From Podarcis cretensis (taxonomy: Eukaryota), in the NCBI GenBank assembly GCA_951804945.1, contig OX638152.1, positions 21,886,001-21,950,000 on the forward strand: a stretch of 64,000 bases of DNA, read 5' to 3'. The notes below the pieces were generated by a model that was not told where the DNA came from, made no database searches, and saw nothing but the letters and a program-made list of their open reading frames with translations. This document shows positions 20,671 to 40,298 of this stretch, in pieces (position 1 is the stretch's first letter; each line of letters opens with the position of its first letter). Position numbers and translations under genes: made by a program.

Positions 20671-20777
20671 TTTTAGTATTGCTCTGTAAAGGTGATTTCG
20701 CTTCAAATCTAGGAGACAACAGAGTGAGTTGTCACTAAGGACTGGAAATTATACAGTAGCTGAGCTAGGAAATTTTA

Positions 20778-21302
<525 letters not shown>

Positions 21303-23128: not shown

Positions 23129-25049
23129 AATATTTTTTCTATCCATTCGTGTTCTTCAGTCTGTCCTCTCTTAAGATCCTAATTGCAAAACTAAAGACTG
23201 ACTTCACAGCCTTTCCTCAAAACCAAAAAGTACTTTTCCAGATTTACAACAGCCAATGAAAACTGAAAAGTCTGTACACACATTATGTAAAAGCTTTACA
23301 TCTTTCCAAGGAGCTGTCCACAGCAATTCCAGCACCTCTCTCTTGGGTAGCAACAGCTAATACAGAACACAATGTTCTGTAAATATACCTGGTGTTCCTT
23401 TTCTAGTATATTCCACCTGTCAATATTGAATGTCATCAACAAGTTTTATTTCCAACTTGTTTATGCTGCAAGATCCAACAATAATCTTCACAGTTTACCT
23501 TTATCCCACTACCAATAGTCTATTGATCAGTGTGCAAATACCAATAATTTATCCTGTGCCCTCTGTACACTTACAGAGGGATGCATCACAGAAACCTGAG
23601 AATAAACCGATGATGTCAATGAAGTCTGGAAATCCCAGATTTTAACCTTGGGTTTAGGGAGAGGGTAATTTGTGGATCCATTTTGGATTGCATCTCAGAT
23701 TGCCCTGGTCAAATCGTAAATTGAACTGGAGGTTGAATTATTATTTTTTTCAGACATCTAGAAGAGGGATGAGCAGCCTGTACCTGTTAGCCTCATTTAA
23801 TGTGGCTGTCAAGAAGGTGGTAAATGGGGCTAACAGTGAGAGAGAAGTGTTGTACCTTGCCTACTTTGGGTTCCACCTCTATCCTCCACCCACATATAAA
23901 GCACCCAGCCAATTACCCCAAAGGAATGTAGCCCTGAAGGTCATCAGCTGCAGGAGAATGCCTGACTGGGCAGGAGAATCTAGTGGTTCCATATGATTTT
24001 AAGACTGTACCTTGTCCATGCACCTTCAGTGTTAACTACATCACACAGACTTCTTTGTAAACAGAACCGGGCAGGTTTTTCTTCTCCATGAGTTAATTTA
24101 CTCTCCAAATGATTACAAGAGGCAGTAAGGGCTGCAGCTGATACTGTTTTGAAGAACACTGAATAACAGGTGACCAGCAATACTATCCTATGTTGCAAAT
24201 ATGATCAGAAAGATGGGGAAAGCACATGATATATATTTAAAGTGTCTAAGGGGGAAGAGAAAGCACAACATCCATCCTGTATGAGCTACCCTTCTTCACC
24301 ATACAACGCCTGGGCTTTGATCAGCATATGTTCATATCATGGCCAACACAATCCTAACTCCACTCAAAAAGTCCCACTGAGATCAACGCTGCCTGTTTCC
24401 TATGTTAGCTGACTGCATCACACTTATAAAGTGGCTTTTTTTCTTTATAAAAAAGAGATGCTGGATCTTGACCACCTTTTTTTAGGGGGAGCATCCAGCC
24501 AAAGTTGTTGAGTGACAGAGAGCCTTTGTATGATTGGAACAGGGTGCCCAGAGGAGGATGTTTTGAAAACTAGCTCTAGGTGCCGTTGATCAGGAAGTCG
24601 CCACCTCAGCATAGCCCTAATGGCCAACTTTCTCCATAAACTTGTGATGCAACCACTAATCTACTTTTAAAGGACACCCTTTTAAAAAAAAAAAAAACCC
24701 ATCTCATTGTAAGGAGAAAACAAGCACTGTGGGTGAGAGTTTGGCCCAGAACCTATTGTGCAATTTCCCATCTTGCAGCAGTTTACAAACAGGTATGTAG
24801 GAATAATTCGAAAAAGGAATATGGGGGAGGAACAAGAAGATGAAATAAGAAGATAAGGTATCAGAAGGCAACCCTCCTCAGCTGCCCTAGGAAATGAACT
24901 CTTGCTCTCCAGCGGGGCTGTTGCTTTAGCTTTCGAGTAGGCAGTCCTTGGTGCAGCCACTGTGTTTTCTACACGTCGCACACCACTCCAACGGCTCTGG
25001 TAGGAAGAATGGGGATTTAAATCCAACAAAACAGCAAAAACACAACGAC

Positions 25050-26200
25050 AATAGCGACGGCAGCATCCCTCACCAGGAGCGGCGCGGCCCATTCTCCCAC
25101 CTCGGGGCTCCTTCGGGGGACGAGGGAAATGAGGGGCCGCCGCGGTTCACCTTCACACAAGACACACACATACACCCCGCTTTGAATTTGAACGTGTGGA
25201 GATGTTACGAAGCGTTGTCGACGGCGAATATTCTCCTCGGGAAAACGGGTGGGGCGCGGGGAGGCTGCGCACCTGGCGCCCCCCGGCCACGCCACGCGAT
25301 GGCGGAAGAGGGGAAGGAAGCCCGTGAGGGAAACGGAGGCAGGGGTGGGAGAAGGCGGAGGAAAAGAGCCGAGCTTCCCCCCCCCCCCACATACACACAC
25401 ACCATAGCCAGGGAACTGGGATCTACCCCGGCGCTCCCTCACAGGCGGACGCGGCTCCTCCCCTTCCTTCCTTCCTTCTTCCCTCCCTCCTTCCCTCAGC
25501 AGCGCAAGAGCGACTCACCTGCGCGCACCGCTCCCCCTTCCGAACAGCCGGCCTTTTGACCCAACCCCCACCCGCCTGCCGCGGCCGCCGGCGAGGCCGC
25601 CTGTCACTCACCCATCCACGCGGCGCTCCGATTGGACGGCGCCGCGCGCTCGCCACTCGCTCGCGCTCCCCAACGGTTCCAACCGCCTCCTTTCCCCAAC
25701 TCGCGCAACTTTGCCCGCCACGCCCCTAGCGCCACGCCCCCACTCGCTCGCTCTCGCGTTCTGACCCGTCTCCCGCCTATTGGTCCCGGCGGCTGCTTGT
25801 CAACGAGCATGGCTTCCGTCATTGGTGGAGGGGGCGAAAAGAGGCGGTTGTTTTCGCGGCGCCTTCGGAGGAGAGGGAGAAAGGGCGGGTGAGGGGGCGC
25901 AGGCGAGGCGGCGGGTTGAGGAGGAGGAGGGAGGGAAGTCGGTGGGCCTTCCCTAGGTACGGCCGCAGAGGAGGAGTCGGTCTTCGCCCGTGTCAGTCCT
26001 CACCGGGACGGAAGGGGGCGGGCAGAGGGCGGTGGATTCCGTTTGCGATTTTTGGGATACCGCTGTGGAAAGGATTGGATCACCTCAGAGCACGCGCAAG
26101 TTGCGTACCGCTGCCCGCTGCGTTGCCGCCTACCTGAGCGGCGCAGCGGGAAGGGTTGGGTGCGATCCCCGCTTCTGCAGCTTCAAAGAGAGGGGACATC
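25050..26200. promoter_or_regulatory. MSANTD4: CpG island / MSANTD4 promoter and non-coding first exon
   Basis: GC- and CpG-rich; ATTGG (CCAAT) boxes near 25631, 25779 and 25821; minus-strand donors GTGAGT at 25513-25518 and 25606-25611. Confidence 0.8.
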
Positions 26201-27689: not shown

Positions 27690-30600
27690 AATAACTAACT
27701 TAGTTGGTCTTTAAGGTGCTACTGGAAGGAATTTTTTTATTTTGTTTTGACTAGGGTTTTAATGTAGATCTTTCACACTCCATTTGGGGCTAAGAAGTGG
27801 GAATGCCATCAGGCAACATTTCTATGACTTCCAAAGCTTATATTATTCTTTTGAACATTGATCATAACTATTTCTCACCTTTGATTTTTACACCCAAATC
27901 CCAAATACATTTTCTTGAAAGTTTTGATTACAACTGAACTTACTTTCAGGTAAGTGTTAAACCAAGAGCTTAATCATTTATTCAGAAGGAAATCTCTGCA
28001 GCATTCATTCTTCATTGTAAGGAAAGTGCTAAATGAAGGTATATGGAGGTGGTTCTTCATTGTGAGATAGAGCAGAAGCTTAACATACTACAGTAGTTCA
28101 ACTGCTCAGTGTTTTTATTATGCAGATTAATGAACATTCCAGCACTCACACAGGTACAGGCATATTTCTGTCACTTCAAGTGGCTTGTAGCACAGTTACA
28201 AATACTTTAAAGATTTTTTCCTTCTGCATATCAACGGCTAACCAGGGATGTCACTTCCATATGTCACTTCCATAAGGGATTTTGGGGATAATTACAGTCA
28301 AATGCCCAAGAACACTCCTGTGTCAAAATAAAGCCTTCCCCCACACCTTCCTGCCTCAAAATGGCAGGTGCCCAGTATCCCCCAGAGCAAGGAAGTTAAA
28401 GAACCCCAGTGACACCTGTGGGGCCATTTCCTCTGGCAAAAATTGAAGGCAGCTGTGATTCAGATGATCCAGTAGGAAGCTCCAAGAGGAGGAGCAGAAT
28501 CCAATGTGGCAGCAGGAAATTGCAGGAAGTTCAACAATTTTGCTCTGGACCCTAGAAACACCCTCACCCAACCTCAAAAACTGGGTGGAGTAAAAGTACC
28601 TCAGATGTAGAAGACTCAGAGCAGCAGCAGAAAGAGGTAGCAACTAGTACTCTGGGAGCAGGGAGGAGTGCTTAGCAACACGTAGTGCTCAACTCTCAGG
28701 TGTGGTGGCCATTCTCTACCACTGATGAGTAGTGTTCAAGGAGGAGCAACAGGCACCTTTGCAGCAGGTGAGCTAGCAGGAAGGGACTGATCCTCAGCCT
28801 TCGTCTTCAGGGTGATAATAGATGTCCCAAATTGAGGGGGTGGGCTGACGGGGACCCCTCACTTCAGGTGCCATGAGGGAGAAGGATAACAGTCCCACCT
28901 CCTCCAAGGACTGTAGATGGGGAGCTGGAATTTGTGCCCGATGCAATAATTTTTTGTGTGACAGCTCTCCAAATCACTGAGCCCTGGGTCTGCGAAGGGA
29001 CTAAATATTTTTCCCCCGGGTGTGGGGAATAGATTACAATTGCTAGGGTGCTTTGAGGAAAGCTATAATAATAGAACATGATTTAAATCACTTTGTGTAG
29101 ATGTGCCCTTTCCCATACTATGTGCTACAGCAAAATCTCTTACTTTGAATGTCAGTTATTTAGCAATCATCATTTTTTCTGCCTTATCTAACCCTTTTCC
29201 TCAGGGTAATACCAAAGTTTCCGTTAACATTTTTACAGCAAGGAGAACTAGATTGACTGTTCTGATTCCAATACCTTTAGAGGTAGACTTGGTCATAGGT
29301 GCCGTCTCTCACTGAAGATTGCTCCAATGGACTTGGCAGAGGAGTGTAAAAGTGAAAATAAAAAACACAATGTATAAAAACAATGCACTGCATTTTGACA
29401 CTGACATTTGTGATACAGTAATTGCAAAATAATATCTATTGAACTAGTGACCACTTAGCAATAGTTCAATCAATTAACTGACCACAGGAAGAAATTACAT
29501 ATATTAAATGTTCATTAGCTCATGCCATATTTTACCTTTACTGATAATACAATACCAGAATAATAGAACTGTTTTGGTGTGGTTACATTTTTAGTGCAAA
29601 TAAATTCATATACGTTGGCATGCAACTCCTTTCTACATTATAATGTAGGCTGGGATCCGAAGAACTGCAACACTTGTTTCTCATGTCCAGCATACCCTAG
29701 TGACTGTGTTTCTTGAACAATACATCTCCCCGTGGCATACAGCAAATTACTTTTGAAACTTGAGTGAAGGGGACTTTCTAAAGCTGTTTGATATGTCATG
29801 AAGATCTTGATCTTCAAAGGTTGCAGGGAAGTAAAAATTCCACTAGACTTGCCCAAGTTCTTGGGCATGTCTAAAATACCTCTTTGGATCCCAGCCACTA
29901 TCAGGTAAGACTACTAGATAATACGTACTCCTTAAAAGTGCATTTGTACAATTAATATTTTGGCCTCTAGTTTGTGTTTTGTGGTCTAGTTTTTGCAAGA
30001 TGTTAAGCAAACATCTTACAAAATGTTTACTCAGGAGTTAAACCCCACTGAGCATGCATAGAAATGCAGCCTTAGAAAACTAGCTATATCCTTCTCTTAT
30101 ATCTAATGTATTGTAAGTACATGAGATGGATGACAGAAGTAGGTATGTGCAACTGGCATGCCCTTAATCAACTTTATACAGATCATCAATCCAGTTACAA
30201 TTTAAGGAAGAATGAGGAAATGCAAAATTAGGATCCAAACAGTCATGAAAGATACTGCCTCAAAAATACAAGCTGTGCAGTATAATCCTTAGCAGGTTCA
30301 CTCTGGAGTAAATCTCACTGAATTCAAATGTACCTACTCCCAAGTAAATTTACACAGGCAATGAAACTTAATTTTAAATAAATATAAATTTTGGCCACCT
30401 TCCCCAATCTGGTGTCTTCCAGAGATTTTGGGATCCAAACTTCCATCATCCCTAGTCAGCATGGGCAATGATCAGGGATGATGTGAGCTGTAGTCCCAAA
30501 AGATATGGAGGCATTCAAGTTGGGGAAATACAATTACACTGATCTATTATAACCCCTCTATGATTTTACACCAGACTGATGAGATATAACCCGATGCAAT

Positions 30601-31717
30601 AAGCACAAGTAAAACATTCCTATATTGTTTTGGACAAAGGAAATAAAAACTTTACTGCACACTTGCTACCACAAGCATAAGCATAAAGGCACTTCCTTGG
30701 GCTGTGTCTGTTACCTATGGCTATCATAAAGAGAAAAGCACAGCCAACAGCATTGAAATGACAGACCAACTTAGGACCTATTAGTAACATCAACAAGCTA
30801 CACCACTTGAGATACTGAATACTCAACTGAATCCACTACTGTCTTTGCTTAAGCCATTTTAGTCTATCAGTGAGTGCAGTTCTTTGCCTACTCAAAAGTA
30901 AGTCCTATGAGTTCAATGAACATACTCCCAGGTGAACAGAGTATTGCAGCCCAAGTTAATAAAAGTTGTTTGTGAAAATTATTGTGTGCAATGTTCCTAT
31001 CAAAATAGTTGACATTTTATTTAATATCTAATAGAGAAAAATGCTAAATTAAGCTTTAAAAAATCCAGAATTGAGTAACTTACAGCAAGCCTACACATTT
31101 TTACTCAGAAGCCCACCCCACTGAGTTCAATGGGGTGTGCTTCCTGGTAAACAGTTAAGCCAACATCCAGAAAGCAACTAAATTCAGCCTATTTTACTTT
31201 ACTACATATTATGGAAAACTTCAACTTTTAACTCCATTTTTTTCTACTGGCAAAACTATGATTGATCCTGGTTACTCTTACTTTGGGCCTAAAAGTGCAT
31301 TAATCTGAAAACTTGGGCCAGGATGTAAACTGCTACCTAGGCTCAATGTAATTTTTGATATTTTTTTCTTTGACCAGTTGACCCCAAATCATACCATAAA
31401 TTGCTTTTCAACATATTGTAGGGTTGACTGGGGGAAAGGGGAAAAAAACCCTCACATCATCTACATTACTCTTTAGTTCACAAAGCTTCTGGTTCTAGTT
31501 GTGGTCAATCCCTTTTTTTTGGGGGGGGGGTTGCTACTGAAATTTAAAAAGAGGTGTTTGAATATATTCAAACAATCAAGCCCTGCTCCTTATTAAAATA
31601 AAAAGTGGCTGCAAACCATGTTAGCAGATTGGGCCTCTAATATATGGGGCTTTTTGGCAAATGAAAAGCAAACAGAACCATAAAACTTGTGCAGCTTCTT
31701 ATAACTGATATACTGGA

Positions 31718-33323
31718 CTACACTGCTATTGCAAACAACCATGGGTCCCTATATTTATTAAACTTAATCACCTGACAATAGAACTCAGTTAGGGCTCTTG
31801 GCATGGGTGAAACCTCCTCCCATTCAGACCTACTGCTATGGTAGACTTGTACTTCATCAGTGATTTCATCAGGAGCATAATCTCCACCGAGGATGTAAAT
31901 TTTATCTTCTATTCCAACTGCTCCTGCATTAAAACCAGCACATTCAAAAGACCCTTCCCCTTTCCAGACATATGTCTCTGGGCAAAAACTATAAACCTTG
32001 TAGGTGGAAAGGTCACAGATGTACAATGTGCAGTTCACTGGAACAGCTTTGATTAAGGTGGCATGAAAGAACTGCCCAAATTCTGCTACCAGCTCAGACC
32101 ACTGATCAGTTGCGGCATTATATTTAAAGAAACAATCAAGAGATGGGTTAAAGGCATCAGTAATTTCTACTTCAGAACCAAGCACATAAATTATATTCTG
32201 ACATGCACTTGCTTCTGGATAATAGATACCTCTTGGTAAGGGACTCACAGATTTCCATTCCCCAGAGAGAGGACTGTATGCCTCCACATCTAAAAGACTT
32301 TTGATATCCTTAGATGCCCTTGTCTTCCCCCCTATTACAAACAGTTGATTTAGGGTCACAACAGATGCATGCATTGTCCTTGGCTTCTTCATGGCTGATA
32401 CCGATGAGAAGCTGTCCTTCACCGGACAATAACACCAAGTTTGGTCAGTGGCGTCATGATACGTTTCGGCAATATGAAGTCTAATTGTCCGGAAACAGTT
32501 CCCTACACATCCGCCAGTTATAAACAGCTTTTCACCATAACTAGATAAACTTGATCCTGGCAGATCTGTTATGTGCGTGTGCATCAGTTCTTTCCATTGA
32601 TCGGTTTTAATATTGTAACAAAACGTATGTCGATGTACTCCGTCTTCCTCAGTTTTGTGAACAAGTATGTACTGTTCTGTTGTTGAAGGGCGAGCGTCTG
32701 GAAACAAACCGCTAAAAGTTTGCACACTTTTAATTGCCTCATTGATTATTACTAAGCAACCAGCGCTTTCAAGTAGTTGTTCTTCAGAGTGCAATACTTC
32801 CTGCAGTGTCTTCTCCGATAACTGATGTAACCTTATTTTTTTCATCAAGTGGGGAAGATGCTTCTGTCTTGTTTCTAAGTTATGTTTCGTCCACCAAAGG
32901 GCAGCTTTTAACACAGATTCCTCATCTGGGACATTGAGCTCATCTGCTTCTATACATTTTAGCAGTATCTCGAAATTCATTTCCAGAAAATCATTTGACT
33001 GGAGCAGCAAGGAAAAATGGCGCTGGGCATATTTGAGGGTATGGTCAAACAACTGAGTGGACCCATAACTTTCGGAAATGGATAATAGCTGCAAACAGTT
33101 GACAAGATCAATGTTCTTAATTAGAAAGTCACTGCAAGCTTTTGAAAGAGTGGAAACTTGAAGAAAGGATGAAAGCTGAAATAACATTTCTACGTTATCG
33201 TTTGTTATCTCTGTTCTTCCAGTGTAGGCATAATCAAGAAATGCCTTCACTGCCTTGGGTGATAAATTACTAATAGTAACACTCCCATCATCTCTTTCTT
33301 TCATGTTAACTTCAAACATGGCC
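31718..33323 (-). CDS. KBTBD3: KBTBD3 large terminal coding exon (BTB-BACK-Kelch)
   Basis: Acceptor ctgcag|G GCC ATG restores R-AMFEVNMKE; BACK domain and Kelch repeats with GG motifs; spliced product is 609 aa. Confidence 0.95.
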
Positions 33324-34777: not shown

Positions 34778-35001
34778 CTGAAAAAGTCACTACATGCTGC
34801 CAATACGCAACGGTGACATGGGATCACTTCATCTTTCACAAGTATTTTGAAGTCAAAAAAGTTGTTTTGATCTCTGAAGCTTTGCAGTACATTTAAGATT
34901 TGTTGGCCATGGCCTTCAGCCACCAAGGAGCTGGCTTTCTGCTCACGAGATGAAATTCCATTGCAAGTTGGGGTGCTAATGAAATCATATTGGTTGTCCA
35001 T
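34778..35001 (-). CDS. KBTBD3: Kelch repeat and BTB domain protein 3, first coding exon
   Basis: MDNQYDF...HGQQILNVLQSFRDQNNFFDFKILVKDEVIPCHRCVLAACSDFFR (BTB N-terminus); donor AG|GTAAG at 34778; acceptor tccttcag| at 35025 upstream of the ATG. Confidence 0.93.
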
Positions 35002-35800
35002 GGTTTCTGCACTCTATTCTTATTGCTGAAGGAGATAATATAAAAGTTAGACACATACAACAAAATTACTGACCAAAAATGACTTCATAGGTATGGTATG
35101 CTAGGTGTGGTGATCCAAGGAATCTTTATCCATATTGGGAAAGGTGTATAAATATTTAAAATAATAAAAATAGCTAGAAATGCCATCCAAATAATACATC
35201 ACAGGTCGGAATCAAATCAGTAACTTGCCTCCGGGTATACTTTCAAAGCAAGTGATGAAGAAATCCATGCACAGAATGATGCTTGTATGCTGGTTTGCAG
35301 TGAATATATTTCACTGTAACCACCATGAGTTCCTAAGGCTTAAATGTTTTAAGTGACTTTGTTACTAAAAAAATAAAAATAATCTGGGGTATAAACTGTA
35401 ACTATTACTGCATTGCTTTATTTGTTTTTTTGAGGGAAAACAAGGTCCCAAAGAATTATATCCAAACCTTGCTATATAAACAACTGATTCATATATTCGA
35501 ACAGCGAGAGTTTGCCCACTTTCTTACTTGTTTGTGTTTTGCTGGTCAATGGTAGCCATTTTGGGCAGAAACCATGGGGGTAAAGAGAGAGATCGGACAA
35601 ATCAGTTTTTCCTCTTTGGCTTTTGCTGATTGGCTGCAGCAGTTTCAGGCAAAAAAGCATGGAGGGAGAAAACCTGGATTAGAAATGTTCCCACAGGAAA
35701 TGAAGGATATAATCTGCTCACTATGCAAACTTGTCACTCTGAGTAAAGGTTGAATACCATCCTAACAAATGTATTATGATACAAGCTTTCATGGAATATA

Positions 35801-37950
35801 CAGTATGATCACATCTTACACGGGGTTGCATTCTGGGGATAGAATGTAAAGCCAGAATACCATATGGTCAATACAACCCTTTAAAAACCAGGTAAATGGC
35901 CCATAAAAAGCACACCAGCATTTACCTGTGCACAATGACCGTGTTGCTTAGTCTTCCTCATCCTCTTCAGGGCTTGAGGTTGCTCCAGGAGATGATGGGC
36001 CAGGCCTGAGCAACAGATTGCGAGTTGCAGGCAAAGTGGTTGGCTCTGTTTCAGCTTCAGAAGTTGATTGTGTGGGCTCACTTGCTACCGCTGCGTTTTT
36101 TGTGAGAAACATGGTGCTTGGCAACTGTCGCTGTTGTCTCTTGAGCTGTTCAAACATTTCTCGATACAGTCTCAAACTGTCTGTGATACCCTGTGTGATT
36201 TTGAGGCTTCGTTCCATAGAGGGATCAAACTTAGCGATCAAATCATTCAGGTGTTTTGCTGTTTGGAAGACTTGAGCAAACTTATGCAGATTCCAACTTG
36301 CTGGCTCATCCTGTTCATCCTCCTCTTCATCTTCTGTACTTGATCTTAGCAGTTCCTCCAGCTCTTCATTAGTTAACGTTCCTCCATGGCCATCAATTAA
36401 CGCTTCAACTTCTTCCTCAGTGAGGTCAACAAAGCCATCACCACCCATTTGTCTGGCCATCTGGACAATATGTTCCACTTCATTGTCAATGGTTGGGAAA
36501 CCCTTAAAATCATCCACACATTCTTTCCACAACTTGCGCCAGCATGCATTCACCGATTCGGGCTTGATTGCATCTACTGCTTGCTTAATGTGAGTGATGC
36601 AACTGGCCATGTTAAAGGACTTCCAGCACTCAATGACATCAAAGTTGGGATCAGTATCCATAGCGTTACGTATCCATGAGAAGGTTAGCCTTGTGTAAGT
36701 TGCCCTGAAGCACCGAATCACACCTTGGTCGAGAGGTTGGATGATGGAGGCCGTGTTGGGCGGGAGAAAGACAACTTCAACATCATTATGTGCAAAGCAG
36801 AGTGCCTCGGGGTGACCAGGAGCATTGTCCACAATCAGCAACACCTTAAAGTTCAGTTGTTTCTCTTCAAGGTACCGCTTAACTTCCGGAACAAAGCAAT
36901 TGTGGAACCAATCTTGAAACGTTGCTGCAGTTACCCAAGCCTTTCTATTGGGTTGCCAAAACACAGGCAGGAGATTTTTGTTCTTGCCTTTCAGGGCACG
37001 GGGGACAGCAGACCTGTACAGCAAGCCTGGCTTTATTAAGTGCCCACCTGCACTGCCACAGAGCAACACAGTCACACGGTCGTTAGCTGCTTTGAAGCCA
37101 GGGGCTTGTTTTTCTGATTTGGAGATGTACGTCCGCTCAGGCATTTTTTTCCAGAACAGCCCCGTCTCAACAGCATTAAAAACTTGCTCAGGAAGGTATC
37201 CCTTTTCGTCTAACAGTTCCTTTAATTGCTTGGGGTAGGCTTTTGCTGCCTCTTTGTCTGCAGATGCAGACACTTCACCAGTTGTGTGCACATTTTTCGG
37301 TTTGAAGCGCTTCCTAAAACTAGTAAGCCAACCGTGACTGGCTTTGAATTCCTTCACAGGCTGGCCATCCTCGGCAGAAGGTTTGAAGAGTGCATAGAGG
37401 CTGAGAGCCTTTTGCCGTAACATCACGCCATCAGTAGGCATGCGTTTGCGGTTCATGTCTTCAAGCCACAAGTTTAATGCCTTCTCAGTCTTTGCTAAAG
37501 CCTCGTCGTCCACCTGGCTTGTCACCTGAGCAGTTATTGGAGCACTTGCTGCCACAATGTCATGGATTTCTCTCTCTCGAACCTGGATGGCATGGACGCT
37601 CGATTCGCTGTAGCCATATTTGCGTGCCACACTAGAGACTGACATGCCATCTCTCAAGCAGTCCAGCGCCGCTACTTTTTCTTGCCGTGTTGGAAGCAAA
37701 CGTTGTTTCTTGTGTTGCACGCCAGCAGAGGGCCCTGGCTTGCGTTTGGGGGCCATGTTTTCTTAATCACCAAGGCTACTCTCAATCGCCAACTGCACCT
37801 CCACACGTTCTCCAACGCTGCTGGCACTGACTCCACCTCATCACCCTTTCCTAAGCTGTACAATGATGGGTGGGATGTCGATGAGGTCCCCACCCCCCCG
37901 CCCGTCACGCACACAAATTTGGAAATTGCCTATGTTAAATGTGCATAAGC
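35801..37950 (-). mobile_element. Decayed Tigger-like DNA transposon body enclosing the ORF
   Basis: TA|CAGTATGATCACATCTTACAC terminus at 35801; only a partial counterpart (gtgcataag) near 37940. Right boundary uncertain. Confidence 0.55.
35948..37756 (-). CDS. Intact Tigger/pogo-family (TIGD/CENP-B-like) transposase-derived ORF, 602 aa
   Basis: N-terminal PKRK basic signal, psq-type HTH, CENP-B-type HTH (FKASHGWLTSFRKR), DDE_1-type domain with VFNAVETGLFWK / LLIVDNAPGHP / IQPLDQGVI (D310-D343, 32-residue spacing), acidic tail; Kozak aaaacATGG; no stops or frameshifts. Confidence 0.9.
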   Translation of the reverse strand: MAPKRKPGPSAGVQHKKQRLLPTRQEKVAALDCLRDGMSVSSVARKYGYSESSVHAIQVREREIHDIVAASAPITAQVTSQVDDEALAKTEKALNLWLEDMNRKRMPTDGVMLRQKALSLYALFKPSAEDGQPVKEFKASHGWLTSFRKRFKPKNVHTTGEVSASADKEAAKAYPKQLKELLDEKGYLPEQVFNAVETGLFWKKMPERTYISKSEKQAPGFKAANDRVTVLLCGSAGGHLIKPGLLYRSAVPRALKGKNKNLLPVFWQPNRKAWVTAATFQDWFHNCFVPEVKRYLEEKQLNFKVLLIVDNAPGHPEALCFAHNDVEVVFLPPNTASIIQPLDQGVIRCFRATYTRLTFSWIRNAMDTDPNFDVIECWKSFNMASCITHIKQAVDAIKPESVNACWRKLWKECVDDFKGFPTIDNEVEHIVQMARQMGGDGFVDLTEEEVEALIDGHGGTLTNEELEELLRSSTEDEEEDEQDEPASWNLHKFAQVFQTAKHLNDLIAKFDPSMERSLKITQGITDSLRLYREMFEQLKRQQRQLPSTMFLTKNAAVASEPTQSTSEAETEPTTLPATRNLLLRPGPSSPGATSSPEEDEED

Positions 37951-38449
37951 AACTCACTTCATCAGACACATAAAGTACTGTCCTCATTTACAGATGCATG
38001 TATATGTACCGGATCGGTCGTGGGTGGGTGCGATTGTAAAAGTTGCAGAAAGTCACTTAGGCCAAAAGGAAGTGCAGCAAATTAATTAACAGTGGTAAAG
38101 CAGAGCATGCTTGACGACATCTTGGCATCGGTAAGCCACTTAGGAGCAAAGGAAGCTGCAGGCTGCTGGTACATCTAGCTTGCTAGAACAAGCAACAGCT
38201 CTCCAGGGTTTCAGCCAGAGGACATTCCAAGCCCTACCTGGAGATGCTGTGGACTGAACCCACGACCTTCCGAATGCAAAGCAGAAAATCTGTCACTGAG
38301 CTATAGTCTTTCCTCTTCCACATATGGGGGGGGGGAGTCCACTATCACTGAAACTCTCTGCTGCTTTTCCTGCAAAAGGCCAACAAAACTGCCCTTCGGG
38401 AAACAGCAGCACTTATTCCTAGCATCATTCAGCTTGAATATCATCGCCT

Positions 38450-39720
38450 TACTGTCTATAGAAGCCTTCGCAGCTGGGAGGAACGCCTGGGAACTAAGGG
38501 CACACGCTACGTAACAGCTTCAGTGGCTGTTCTGCGCATGCCCCACGCGCATGCTCATCACCAGAGACGCCAATCTAAAACACGGCCCGTTCTATAGCGC
38601 TTTCCCTTTTACCTCAGACAACCCAGTTCAAGCTGCCAGGCTGGCGAGTTTAACACCCCTCGTTAGGAACGCGCCGCCTATAACCCAGCGGAGGTCTTCC
38701 ATTCTGTGGTTTCCCCCTCGGTGCGCGCCGCTAACCACCCACCTGCATCCAACGCAGCCACTCGGAGACCATCCGCTACGGCCTACATCTGCAAAAGCCG
38801 ACGCTGTCCTCCCATTGGCTCTTCCTGCTGCCCATCGATCGCGTCTTGTGTTGTGAGTGGCGCAAGTCCGTGTCGCTAAGAAAGCGCAAAAGCCCGCCTC
38901 CTCGTAACTGCCGGTGCCGCCGACGTTGTCAAGAGCGGGGACCGCCCCTCGCTCCCAAGAGCCATGAGCTCGATGAAAACAAAGAGACGCTTCAGGTTAT
39001 CAATTGAAAGTGAGCGTCGGGGAGGGGGGGAAGCAATATAAATAATATAGGACAGGGTTCTATATGGAAATTCAGATTCTCCCCCCGCTTCGCCCCGTAT
39101 TCTATGCAATGCTGTTGCCTCGCATGTGGCTGCTGTAAAGCAGAACTCAGAATGAGCACCGCGCGCAACCTCCTTTTTTTCTTGTTATACCTCTATGTAC
39201 TCTCCGGAGGGAGCTGGTGATTGGTCTGCCGTATTTTGCATTTGGCTCCCGATTGGCTGCTGCGTTTCCTCTCCCTCGCTTAACCTCCGCGAGTCCCTCC
39301 TTCCCTCCTCCTCTTTTTCGAACCTTCCTCGAAGGGAGCGAGCAGAGGGGAGAGTGAGCCACGCGCACTGCGGAGCTTGCACTTTATTTCCCCTCCAGTT
39401 TTGCTGCTGCAGTTCTGCAGCGCGGACTGCTTCGCCTGATTACTCGGAAGCAAGTCGCGTTGAGTCCAGCGGGGCTTCCTGCAGCCTTGGAGTCTCCTGG
39501 CTTAAAAAGTTTTGGGTGCAGTCCTAAACCACGCCTATACTCTGAAGTAAGCCCCGTTGAATTCGGCGAGGCTTACTCCCAGGTAAGTGGGGTTAAGAAT
39601 TGCAGCCATCTCTACGCTCAGTGCCCAGCACTTCGGATGTTCGAGTCCAGCCAGCCCCGTTCCCTCCTGGAAGCAGCAGCAGCGCTATTTCTCCACAGGA
39701 GAGCAACGCGTTCTCCCCTC
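38450..39720. promoter_or_regulatory. CpG island, bidirectional KBTBD3/AASDHPPT promoter
   Basis: CpG-rich between head-to-head genes; two NRF1-like GCGCATGC motifs at 38533-38555; CCAAT/ATTGG boxes near 38570, 38814, 39220 and 39252; minus-strand donor GAG|GTAAAA at 38613 (candidate KBTBD3 exon 1 end). Confidence 0.8.
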
Positions 39721-40298
39721 TCCTTAAAAAAAATCCTGCCTAGATTGCTAGCAAAAGAAGGGAAATAATTTGTCTATTCGTGTACATTTTGGCCCATTGT
39801 CAGCTGCAATGTCTCTAAGTAATGCCAAGAGGAGCAGGTTTTGAAAACTGCAAGGTGTCCCACTTGAAATCCAGTCCTTGAGAGAAGACTTTTGGGATGC
39901 ATTTGCATTTAAATCCTTTATTCCCTTTCCTCAGTACAGTAGTTCCTAATCCTAAACACACCTGATTGGAGGTAAGCCCCACTAAATTGAATGGGGCTTG
40001 CAGAATTGCGGTCTGGGCAGAGGAGGCGTTTGTTTACGCTGGAGTAAAGACAGAGCATCGTTCTATTTATATGATTCTGATCCTGCCCCTTCCTTCAATG
40101 ACCTCACATGGAGAGGGGCTTAATCCATTTTGCATTGACAACAACCCTGCGAGAGACTGAAAGATGGTCATTCACGCAACAGCCTAACTTGAGTAGGGAT
40201 TTGAACCCAGAACTCACTGGCCCAAGAGTTCTGTCAGCCTCCTATTTCTCTCCCCATTCCGCCACGTGTGTACCCCTCGGGCTGATGTTTTAAAACAT

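Follow-up and report, generated by a model that had tools for sequence, protein, structure and literature searches.

A Tigger-derived transposase gene spliced to KBTBD3 in lacertid lizards, a probable optional 5' exon

Results

A transposase gene in front of the KBTBD3 coding exons

The stretch of DNA analyzed here (the window) comprises 64,000 nucleotides (nt) of the Podarcis cretensis genome (assembly GCA_951804945.1, contig OX638152.1, positions 21,886,001 to 21,950,000 of the forward strand). Its minus strand carries an intact 602-codon open reading frame (ORF) derived from a Tigger transposon and, downstream of it, the coding exons of KBTBD3, whose product is 98% identical to KBTBD3 of Zootoca vivipara over 534 amino acids (aa). 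In contigs assembled from sequencing runs of related organisms, the transposase ORF and the KBTBD3 coding exons are joined on one spliced RNA. Our preferred reading, to which we assign a probability of about 0.6, is that the KBTBD3 promoter drives the ORF as an optional 5' exon: keeping the exon would yield a transposase-derived protein and skipping it would yield KBTBD3. The features of the locus are collected in Table 1.

Table 1. Features of the KBTBD3 locus, in window coordinates
Feature	Position	Strand	Remarks
Candidate exon-1 donor GAG/GTAAAA	38607..38615	-	last exon base 38613; sequence only
Alternative candidate donor CAG/GTGGGT	38737..38745	-	last exon base 38743; 8/9 consensus positions; sequence only
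Candidate acceptor upstream of the ORF, ending in TACAG	37856..37880	-	first exon base 37855; weak hint in run X1
Transposase exon, 1930 nt	35926..37855	-	3' boundary seen in contigs; 5' boundary hinted
Tigger-derived ORF, 602 aa	35948..37756	-	HTH_Tnp_Tc5 and DDE_1 domains; Val196 at first catalytic Asp
Upstream ORF, 19 codons, out of frame	37782..37841	-	sequence
5' splice donor CAG/GTAAAT	35920..35928	-	last exon base 35926; contig junction and fossil alignment
KBTBD3 first coding exon	34778..35025	-	ATG at 35001; in-frame TAA and TAG ahead of ATG within exon
KBTBD3 last exon	28100..33323	-	coding to 31718; long 3' untranslated region (UTR); AATAAA at 28119
CpG-rich region with likely shared two-way promoter	37001..40000	unassigned	KBTBD3 (-) and plus-strand gene
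Decayed 3' terminal repeat of transposon	35799..35825	-	ends at 35801, then TA (35800-35799)
Approximate transposon 5' end	37906..37980, near 37950-37980	-	decayed; terminal repeat unrecognisable

Origin and conservation of the ORF

By its domain content the ORF is a Tigger (pogo) transposase: a domain search detected HTH_Tnp_Tc5 at aa 91-153 (E 3.7e-11) and DDE_1 at aa 226-406 (E 9.7e-39). It is single-copy in the window's genome, where the nearest other copy (L002) is 66% identical in protein and 72% in DNA and the remaining ones are decayed or distant; among 26 same-family loci examined, 25 contain stops and the 26th gave no match. Orthologues of 600-603 aa are present in Podarcis lilfordi, P. 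raffonei, P. muralis, Lacerta agilis, and Z. vivipara. They are 91.0-95.2% identical to the window protein, every indel is in frame, and the frame is intact in all eight orthologous sequences. On a tree of 27 rows picked from the top matches, the orthologues form a clade (support 100/100) that follows the genera, the window sequence nesting with Podarcis; its sister branch (92/94) is a lacertid KRAB-Tigger fusion, followed by turtle sequences. A single copy at an orthologous site is also indicated by the KBTBD3 naming of the protein in two species, by adjacent accessions in P. lilfordi, and by the tree itself. No protein from a non-lacertid squamate exceeds 52% among the 120 best matches listed and, as far as annotation goes, the gene looks restricted to lacertids.

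All eight orthologous sequences contain FNAVETG, with Val196 at the site where relatives carry Asp, which is also the most frequent residue at this site among fossil copies. In a partial sample of 35 listed differences between the ORF and run X1, 18 are silent, roughly double the 26-31% expected under neutrality, and the corresponding omega of about 0.33-0.43 (p 0.001-0.01) indicates moderate purifying selection on the ORF. Variable alignment columns make up 21-28% of the helix-turn-helix (HTH) regions and are thus not rarer there than in the DDE domain (14%). No paired terminal repeats were found at the element among the 25 longest inverted repeats. Its 3' end at 35801/TA is recognizable through fossil copies, since homology with L036 stops at 35799 and both L036 and L039 likewise end in CTG-TA, and its 5' end is decayed. 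A young active transposon is ruled out by the single copy, Val196, and the lack of a repeat pair. The ORF is thus a domesticated, immobile Tigger gene of lacertids. Its product is likely non-cutting, and a role in DNA binding or as a scaffold is predicted as likely because both HTH regions have been kept and the catalytic Asp has been lost.

Two observations on the relatives of this protein may be recorded here. Records from the same species differ by 2.5-2.8% in protein (P0124 from P0126; P0003 from P0125), which is high compared with 5% between Podarcis species and could reflect relaxed constraint, polymorphism, or assembly error. Among non-lacertids, the protein is most closely related to turtle sequences (P0004, P0007, P0016, P0019, P0034, and P0051; 65-76%) on short branches, nearer than any other squamate match, as horizontal transfer or slow evolution in turtles would produce.

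Splice sites inside the transposon

Both inner splice sites, the donor at 35926 and the acceptor at 37855, fall inside the transposon. The donor, 22 nt past the ORF stop, is strong, matching eight of nine positions of the splice consensus; the word [AC]AGGTAA has 23 occurrences in the window, both strands counted, corresponding to an approximately 0.9% chance in any 50 nt, so that a donor at this place is beyond chance. Its GT is invariant in all six aligned sequences, three of the four fossil copies have GTAAGT, and the context of the stop codon is common to the ORF, L036, and L038. The same donor reappears in L002 (G000:C2:118802032-118806807), an intact paralog of the same Tigger family that forms a fusion with KRAB exons (Pfam PF01352 in P0005 and P0006; 22 lacertid records in two clusters) and in which Gly replaces the first catalytic Asp. 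Two groups of RefSeq isoforms of L002 diverge exactly at the homologous GT, and one of them continues in an exon further down. Since the fossil copies carry the GT and the L002 gene models break there, the donor just past the stop was inherited from the transposon family, and two lacertid genes, the ORF described here and L002, likely make use of it.

The acceptor, located 99 nt ahead of the transposase ATG at 37756, has a C-rich tract (13 pyrimidines and 5 T per 19 nt; 14 and 10, respectively, at both KBTBD3 acceptors). Its AG at 37857-37856 was not found in the four fossil copies that align there and hence likely arose in the copy at the KBTBD3 locus. A short upstream ORF begins at 37841 and stops 25 nt ahead of the main ATG; one ATG in a leader of 99 nt is the chance expectation, and this ATG is missing from fossil L038. 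The site at 38613, which matches six of nine consensus positions and is one of nine such sites between 39400 and 37860, is a weak candidate for the donor of KBTBD3 exon 1.

Transcripts joining the two genes

Contigs were aligned from four runs (X1, X3, X8, and X13) of organisms related to the window's species. These belong to 23 candidate runs, none of them on record as RNA, and they were taken to be RNA on the grounds that contigs skip two GT-AG introns. The junction 35025/35926, with CT..AC ends, is present in X1, X3, and X13 (studies P1, P2, and P4; organisms A and B), and the KBTBD3 junction 33322/34777 in all four runs. A contig of 6370 nt from X1 covers 37858-35926, 35025-34777, and then the sequence from 33322 onwards, that is, it runs from the leader of the ORF through the KBTBD3 coding exons. 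A contig from X13 extends to about 28135, near the AATAAA at 28119, which places the KBTBD3 stop within the last exon. In X8 two separate contigs stop at the exon boundaries, the transposase one ending at 35926 and the KBTBD3 one beginning at 35028, as a branch point would produce. In X3, X8, and X13 the transposase has lower contig depths than KBTBD3, and X1 provides a single figure; no inclusion level was drawn from these values, because contig depths cannot rank parts of a gene and an RNA of 7.4 kb would show 3' bias. A processed retrocopy as the source of the joined contigs is ruled out in the window's genome, which has one match to the KBTBD3 exon and no close second copy of the ORF.

Gene annotation treats the locus in two ways. 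In RefSeq, 'KBTBD3 isoform X2' is the name given to the orthologous protein of P. muralis (XP_077783161.1, XP_077783162.1) and Z. vivipara (XP_034971626.1), alongside KBTBD3 models of 609 aa, of which P. muralis has three. This naming agrees with a promoter common to both and with host-only transcripts, although no start site was seen among the contigs. In some NCBI annotations there is a separate TIGD1-like gene. The latter would fit two independent genes, the transposase having a separate promoter and, as a rule, a separate 3' end, for which the AATAAA at 35422 in the downstream intron would be available, and the joined RNA would then be read-through noise. We consider this very improbable, as two organisms and three studies share the exact junction, the 3' end of the transposon contains no AATAAA, and the KBTBD3 coding start lies merely 900 nt downstream without a CpG island of its own.

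These contigs bear on a preliminary description of the locus, which had proposed that the ORF is a cassette exon in the KBTBD3 5' UTR, bracketed by splice signals. Those signals and the 602-codon ORF are found on the minus strand as given; the donor at 35926, described as a good one, is used in X1, X3, and X13, and the ORF proves to be exonic in relatives, with 35926>35025 spliced in three of four runs. The downstream half of the cassette model is thus borne out. Its upstream half is not, since 38613>37855 and the skipping junction 38613>35025 do not figure among the nine joints from the four runs, which does not argue for their absence because contigs drop rare forms. The outcome that would have refuted the preliminary description, namely skipping alone with no cover over the ORF and no conserved splice sites, did not occur: the exon is covered and the junction 35926>35025 was seen.

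Coding logic of the joined RNA

In the joined RNA the transposase frame closes ahead of the donor, in-frame TAA and TAG precede the KBTBD3 ATG, and this ATG lies 46 nt past the transposase stop in another frame. No fusion protein can therefore arise through the acceptor at 35025, in agreement with the preliminary description. A TIGD-KBTBD3 fusion is ruled out by the stops and the frame; the fact that none appeared among 15 longer matches is weak evidence in itself.

The KBTBD3 ATG of the joined RNA stands behind 43 other ATGs and the 602-codon ORF. The context of the transposase ATG is strong, and both start codons have A at -3 and G at +4. The 98% identity to the Zootoca protein implies that KBTBD3 is still needed, and because it is needed and yet its ATG is so placed, transcripts that skip the exon are its most likely source, with reinitiation on the joined RNA as the alternative. 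The latter would mean that the exon is nearly always kept, that ribosomes restart 46 nt past the transposase stop to make KBTBD3, and that the position of the transposon donor lets the RNA escape nonsense-mediated decay (NMD). We regard such a bicistronic mRNA as doubtful, while noting that inclusion is the assembled path in three of four runs and that the sequence context of both ATGs suits it. Its layout is also NMD-immune in the sense of PMC3951408: the first stop lies 22 nt before a junction, and the second ORF spans the one junction that remains and ends in the last exon. SNURF-SNRPN type bicistronic mRNAs are similar, as the first ORF ends less than 55 nt before a junction and the second covers the remaining junctions (PMC3951408), but at the KBTBD3 locus the first ORF has 602 codons and translation of both ORFs from one RNA is hypothetical. 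Reinitiation can itself protect an RNA from NMD (PMC9661723), and after long ORFs it usually requires special elements (PMC10275272). None was recognized on the joined RNA, and the last 130 nt of the ORF lack the TURBS word TGGGA. Further points against a restart are the 46-nt gap, whereas the best-known cases overlap, the break of the X8 contigs at both exon boundaries, and the existence of several 609-aa KBTBD3 models per species, though these occur in non-lacertids too.

The same geometry could make the ORF a poison exon that lowers KBTBD3 through NMD, the transposase protein being incidental: without translation of KBTBD3, the junction 34778>33323 would lie 270 nt past the stop, beyond the 55-nt rule. 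A poison exon would have no need of an open frame of 602 codons, yet all eight orthologous sequences preserve this frame and silent changes are in excess, and the joined RNA is frequent enough for contigs of it to have formed in three runs; we therefore hold this explanation to be quite improbable.

A probable optional exon under the KBTBD3 promoter

The optional exon that we favor would work as follows. A Tigger gene devoid of its first catalytic Asp, seated in front of the KBTBD3 coding exons and kept intact across lacertids, would be transcribed from a promoter shared with KBTBD3. Its exon, which in relatives is spliced through the inherited donor at 35926 to the KBTBD3 exon at 35025, would be entered through the acceptor at 37855 or as part of a retained upstream intron, and both routes are likely in use. 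Translation of RNAs that keep the exon would give the transposase-derived protein, which may act as a non-cutting DNA-binding or scaffold protein, and host-only RNAs that skip it would give KBTBD3.

Several observations weigh against this view. The transposase protein is so far a prediction from sequence; the RNA status of the runs is a guess, their material comes from relatives, and a contig spanning both genes does not prove a single molecule. Neither a host-only RNA nor the use of the donor at 38613 appeared among the contigs of the four runs, and the exon at 35025 is entered from the transposase exon in X1, X3, and X13, which fits inclusion as a main form. Contigs of X8 and X13 cross the acceptor at 37855 and reach 37887 and 37876, respectively, within the supposed intron, and an X3 contig (38338-38772) crosses 38613 unspliced, X3 being the only run with contig cover of 38607-38796; a clean cassette exon is thus not the sole RNA form. 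The selection estimate, moreover, uses 35 of the 62 differences in the X1 piece.

The unspliced contigs raise the question of whether intron retention is the main route into the exon, so that a single unspliced first exon would reach from the promoter to 35926 and the acceptor at 37855 would be minor. Piecewise cover of 37856-38772 in X1, X3, and X8, including the contig across 38613, agrees with this, as do the C-rich, T-poor tract of the acceptor and the expression of ZBED6 by the same route. In contrast, the alignment of the longest X1 contig breaks off at 37858 and leaves 8 letters unplaced, as expected from a splice at 37855, and these letters provide a weak hint of a CAG-ending donor (e.g. 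38743), which they fit better than the GAG at 38613. Nascent RNA near a CpG-island promoter would yield an equally low cover, and a retained leader would contain a repeat resembling a short interspersed element and additional upstream ATGs. Retention as the main route thus appears unlikely.

Comparison with known systems

The preliminary description had likened the locus to PGBD3 in ERCC6/CSB. The two have in common an intact transposase in a host intron, and PGBD3 is expressed from the host promoter by alternative splicing. However, PGBD3 acts as a 3' terminal exon, brings a poly(A) signal, and yields an in-frame fusion (PMC2268245), whereas the exon at the KBTBD3 locus is spliced onward, has no AATAAA in the 3' end of the element, and gives no fusion via the acceptor. 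ZBED6 in ZC3H11A, rather than PGBD3, is the closest precedent. ZBED6 is an intronless transposase in intron 1 of ZC3H11A, carried on a splice variant with the host exons under a common promoter (PMC2780926, PMC5834713). Both cases involve an intronless, single-copy, domesticated DNA transposase in a host 5' intron, an RNA with the whole host coding sequence, a separate protein, and a common promoter, the last being presumed for KBTBD3. They differ in that ZBED6, a hAT element, belongs to placental mammals and relies on the retention of introns 1-3 for its expression, and the ORF described here is a Tigger element of lacertids with its own donor 22 nt past the stop; moreover, the ZBED6 protein and its targets have been demonstrated, while the lacertid protein is known as a translated sequence.

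In host-transposase fusions such as KRABINER, a splice site supplied by the transposon likewise ties the element to a host gene. In these fusions, eight of nine inherited sites are acceptors located ahead of the ORF, and host and transposase parts end up in one fused product (bioRxiv 10.1101/2020.05.07.082677), whereas the KBTBD3 locus inherited a donor, placed beyond the stop, and gives rise to an RNA with two ORFs. A fusion of the KRABINER type is found in the paralog L002, which combines KRAB and Tigger parts. The domesticated pogo/Tigger genes TIGD2-7, JRK, JRKL, and CENPBD1 resemble the ORF in having a transposase of full length with HTH and DDE_1 domains, a damaged triad, and purifying selection (PMC7386202), but the ORF represents an independent, lacertid-restricted event. 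Selection on it looks weaker, as the omega estimated from our partial sample compares with 0.055-0.21 in three rows of that survey. The ORF is not among the 12 domesticated pogo genes given in the survey, which set TIGD1-like sequences aside as akin to pseudogenes, and the main text of PMC9219625 mentions neither Podarcis nor Lacerta.

A literature search on KBTBD3, AASDHPPT, and lacertid Tigger transposases, covering titles and the beginnings of abstracts and not supplementary tables, showed no description of the locus among the papers listed; the supplementary tables of bioRxiv 10.1101/2020.05.07.082677 and PMC7386202 could list the ORF or its paralog. The gene is thus already visible to automatic annotation and was not found described in the literature. 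It adds a reptilian case of a transposase tamed by riding on a host mRNA without fusion to the host protein, for which ZBED6 was the one clear precedent found. The route differs from that of ZBED6, as a donor brought by the transposon and placed past the stop codon makes the whole gene an internal exon; the same donor seems to be in use in L002, a second gene born of this Tigger family. The puzzle is that a conserved host protein is required and yet the assembled RNA places a long ORF ahead of it. Two solutions offer themselves: splicing selects which of the two proteins is made, or translation resumes downstream of a long ORF on a cellular mRNA of a vertebrate. If the latter were true, a lizard housekeeping gene would have been turned into a genuine two-protein mRNA.

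Neighboring genes and repeats

Upstream of KBTBD3, a plus-strand gene with coding sequence from about 40340 is one that we take to be AASDHPPT by its motifs. Downstream of KBTBD3, whose 3' UTR extends to about 28100, a Myb/SANT-like gene is located on the minus strand at 20775-21290, with a CpG island at 25001-26000; this is presumably MSANTD4. The transposon is flanked by two high-copy repeats (window positions 38190-38260 and 35480-35660), to which many unrelated contigs align.

L004-L020, on several contigs of G000, represent a young Tigger-like family of its own that is 35% identical to the window protein and has many open frames and copies that are 89-99% alike. Four of its members (L004, L005, L010, and L011) are found within a 150-kb stretch of C2 and are 99% alike, flanks included, an arrangement that resembles tandem duplication.

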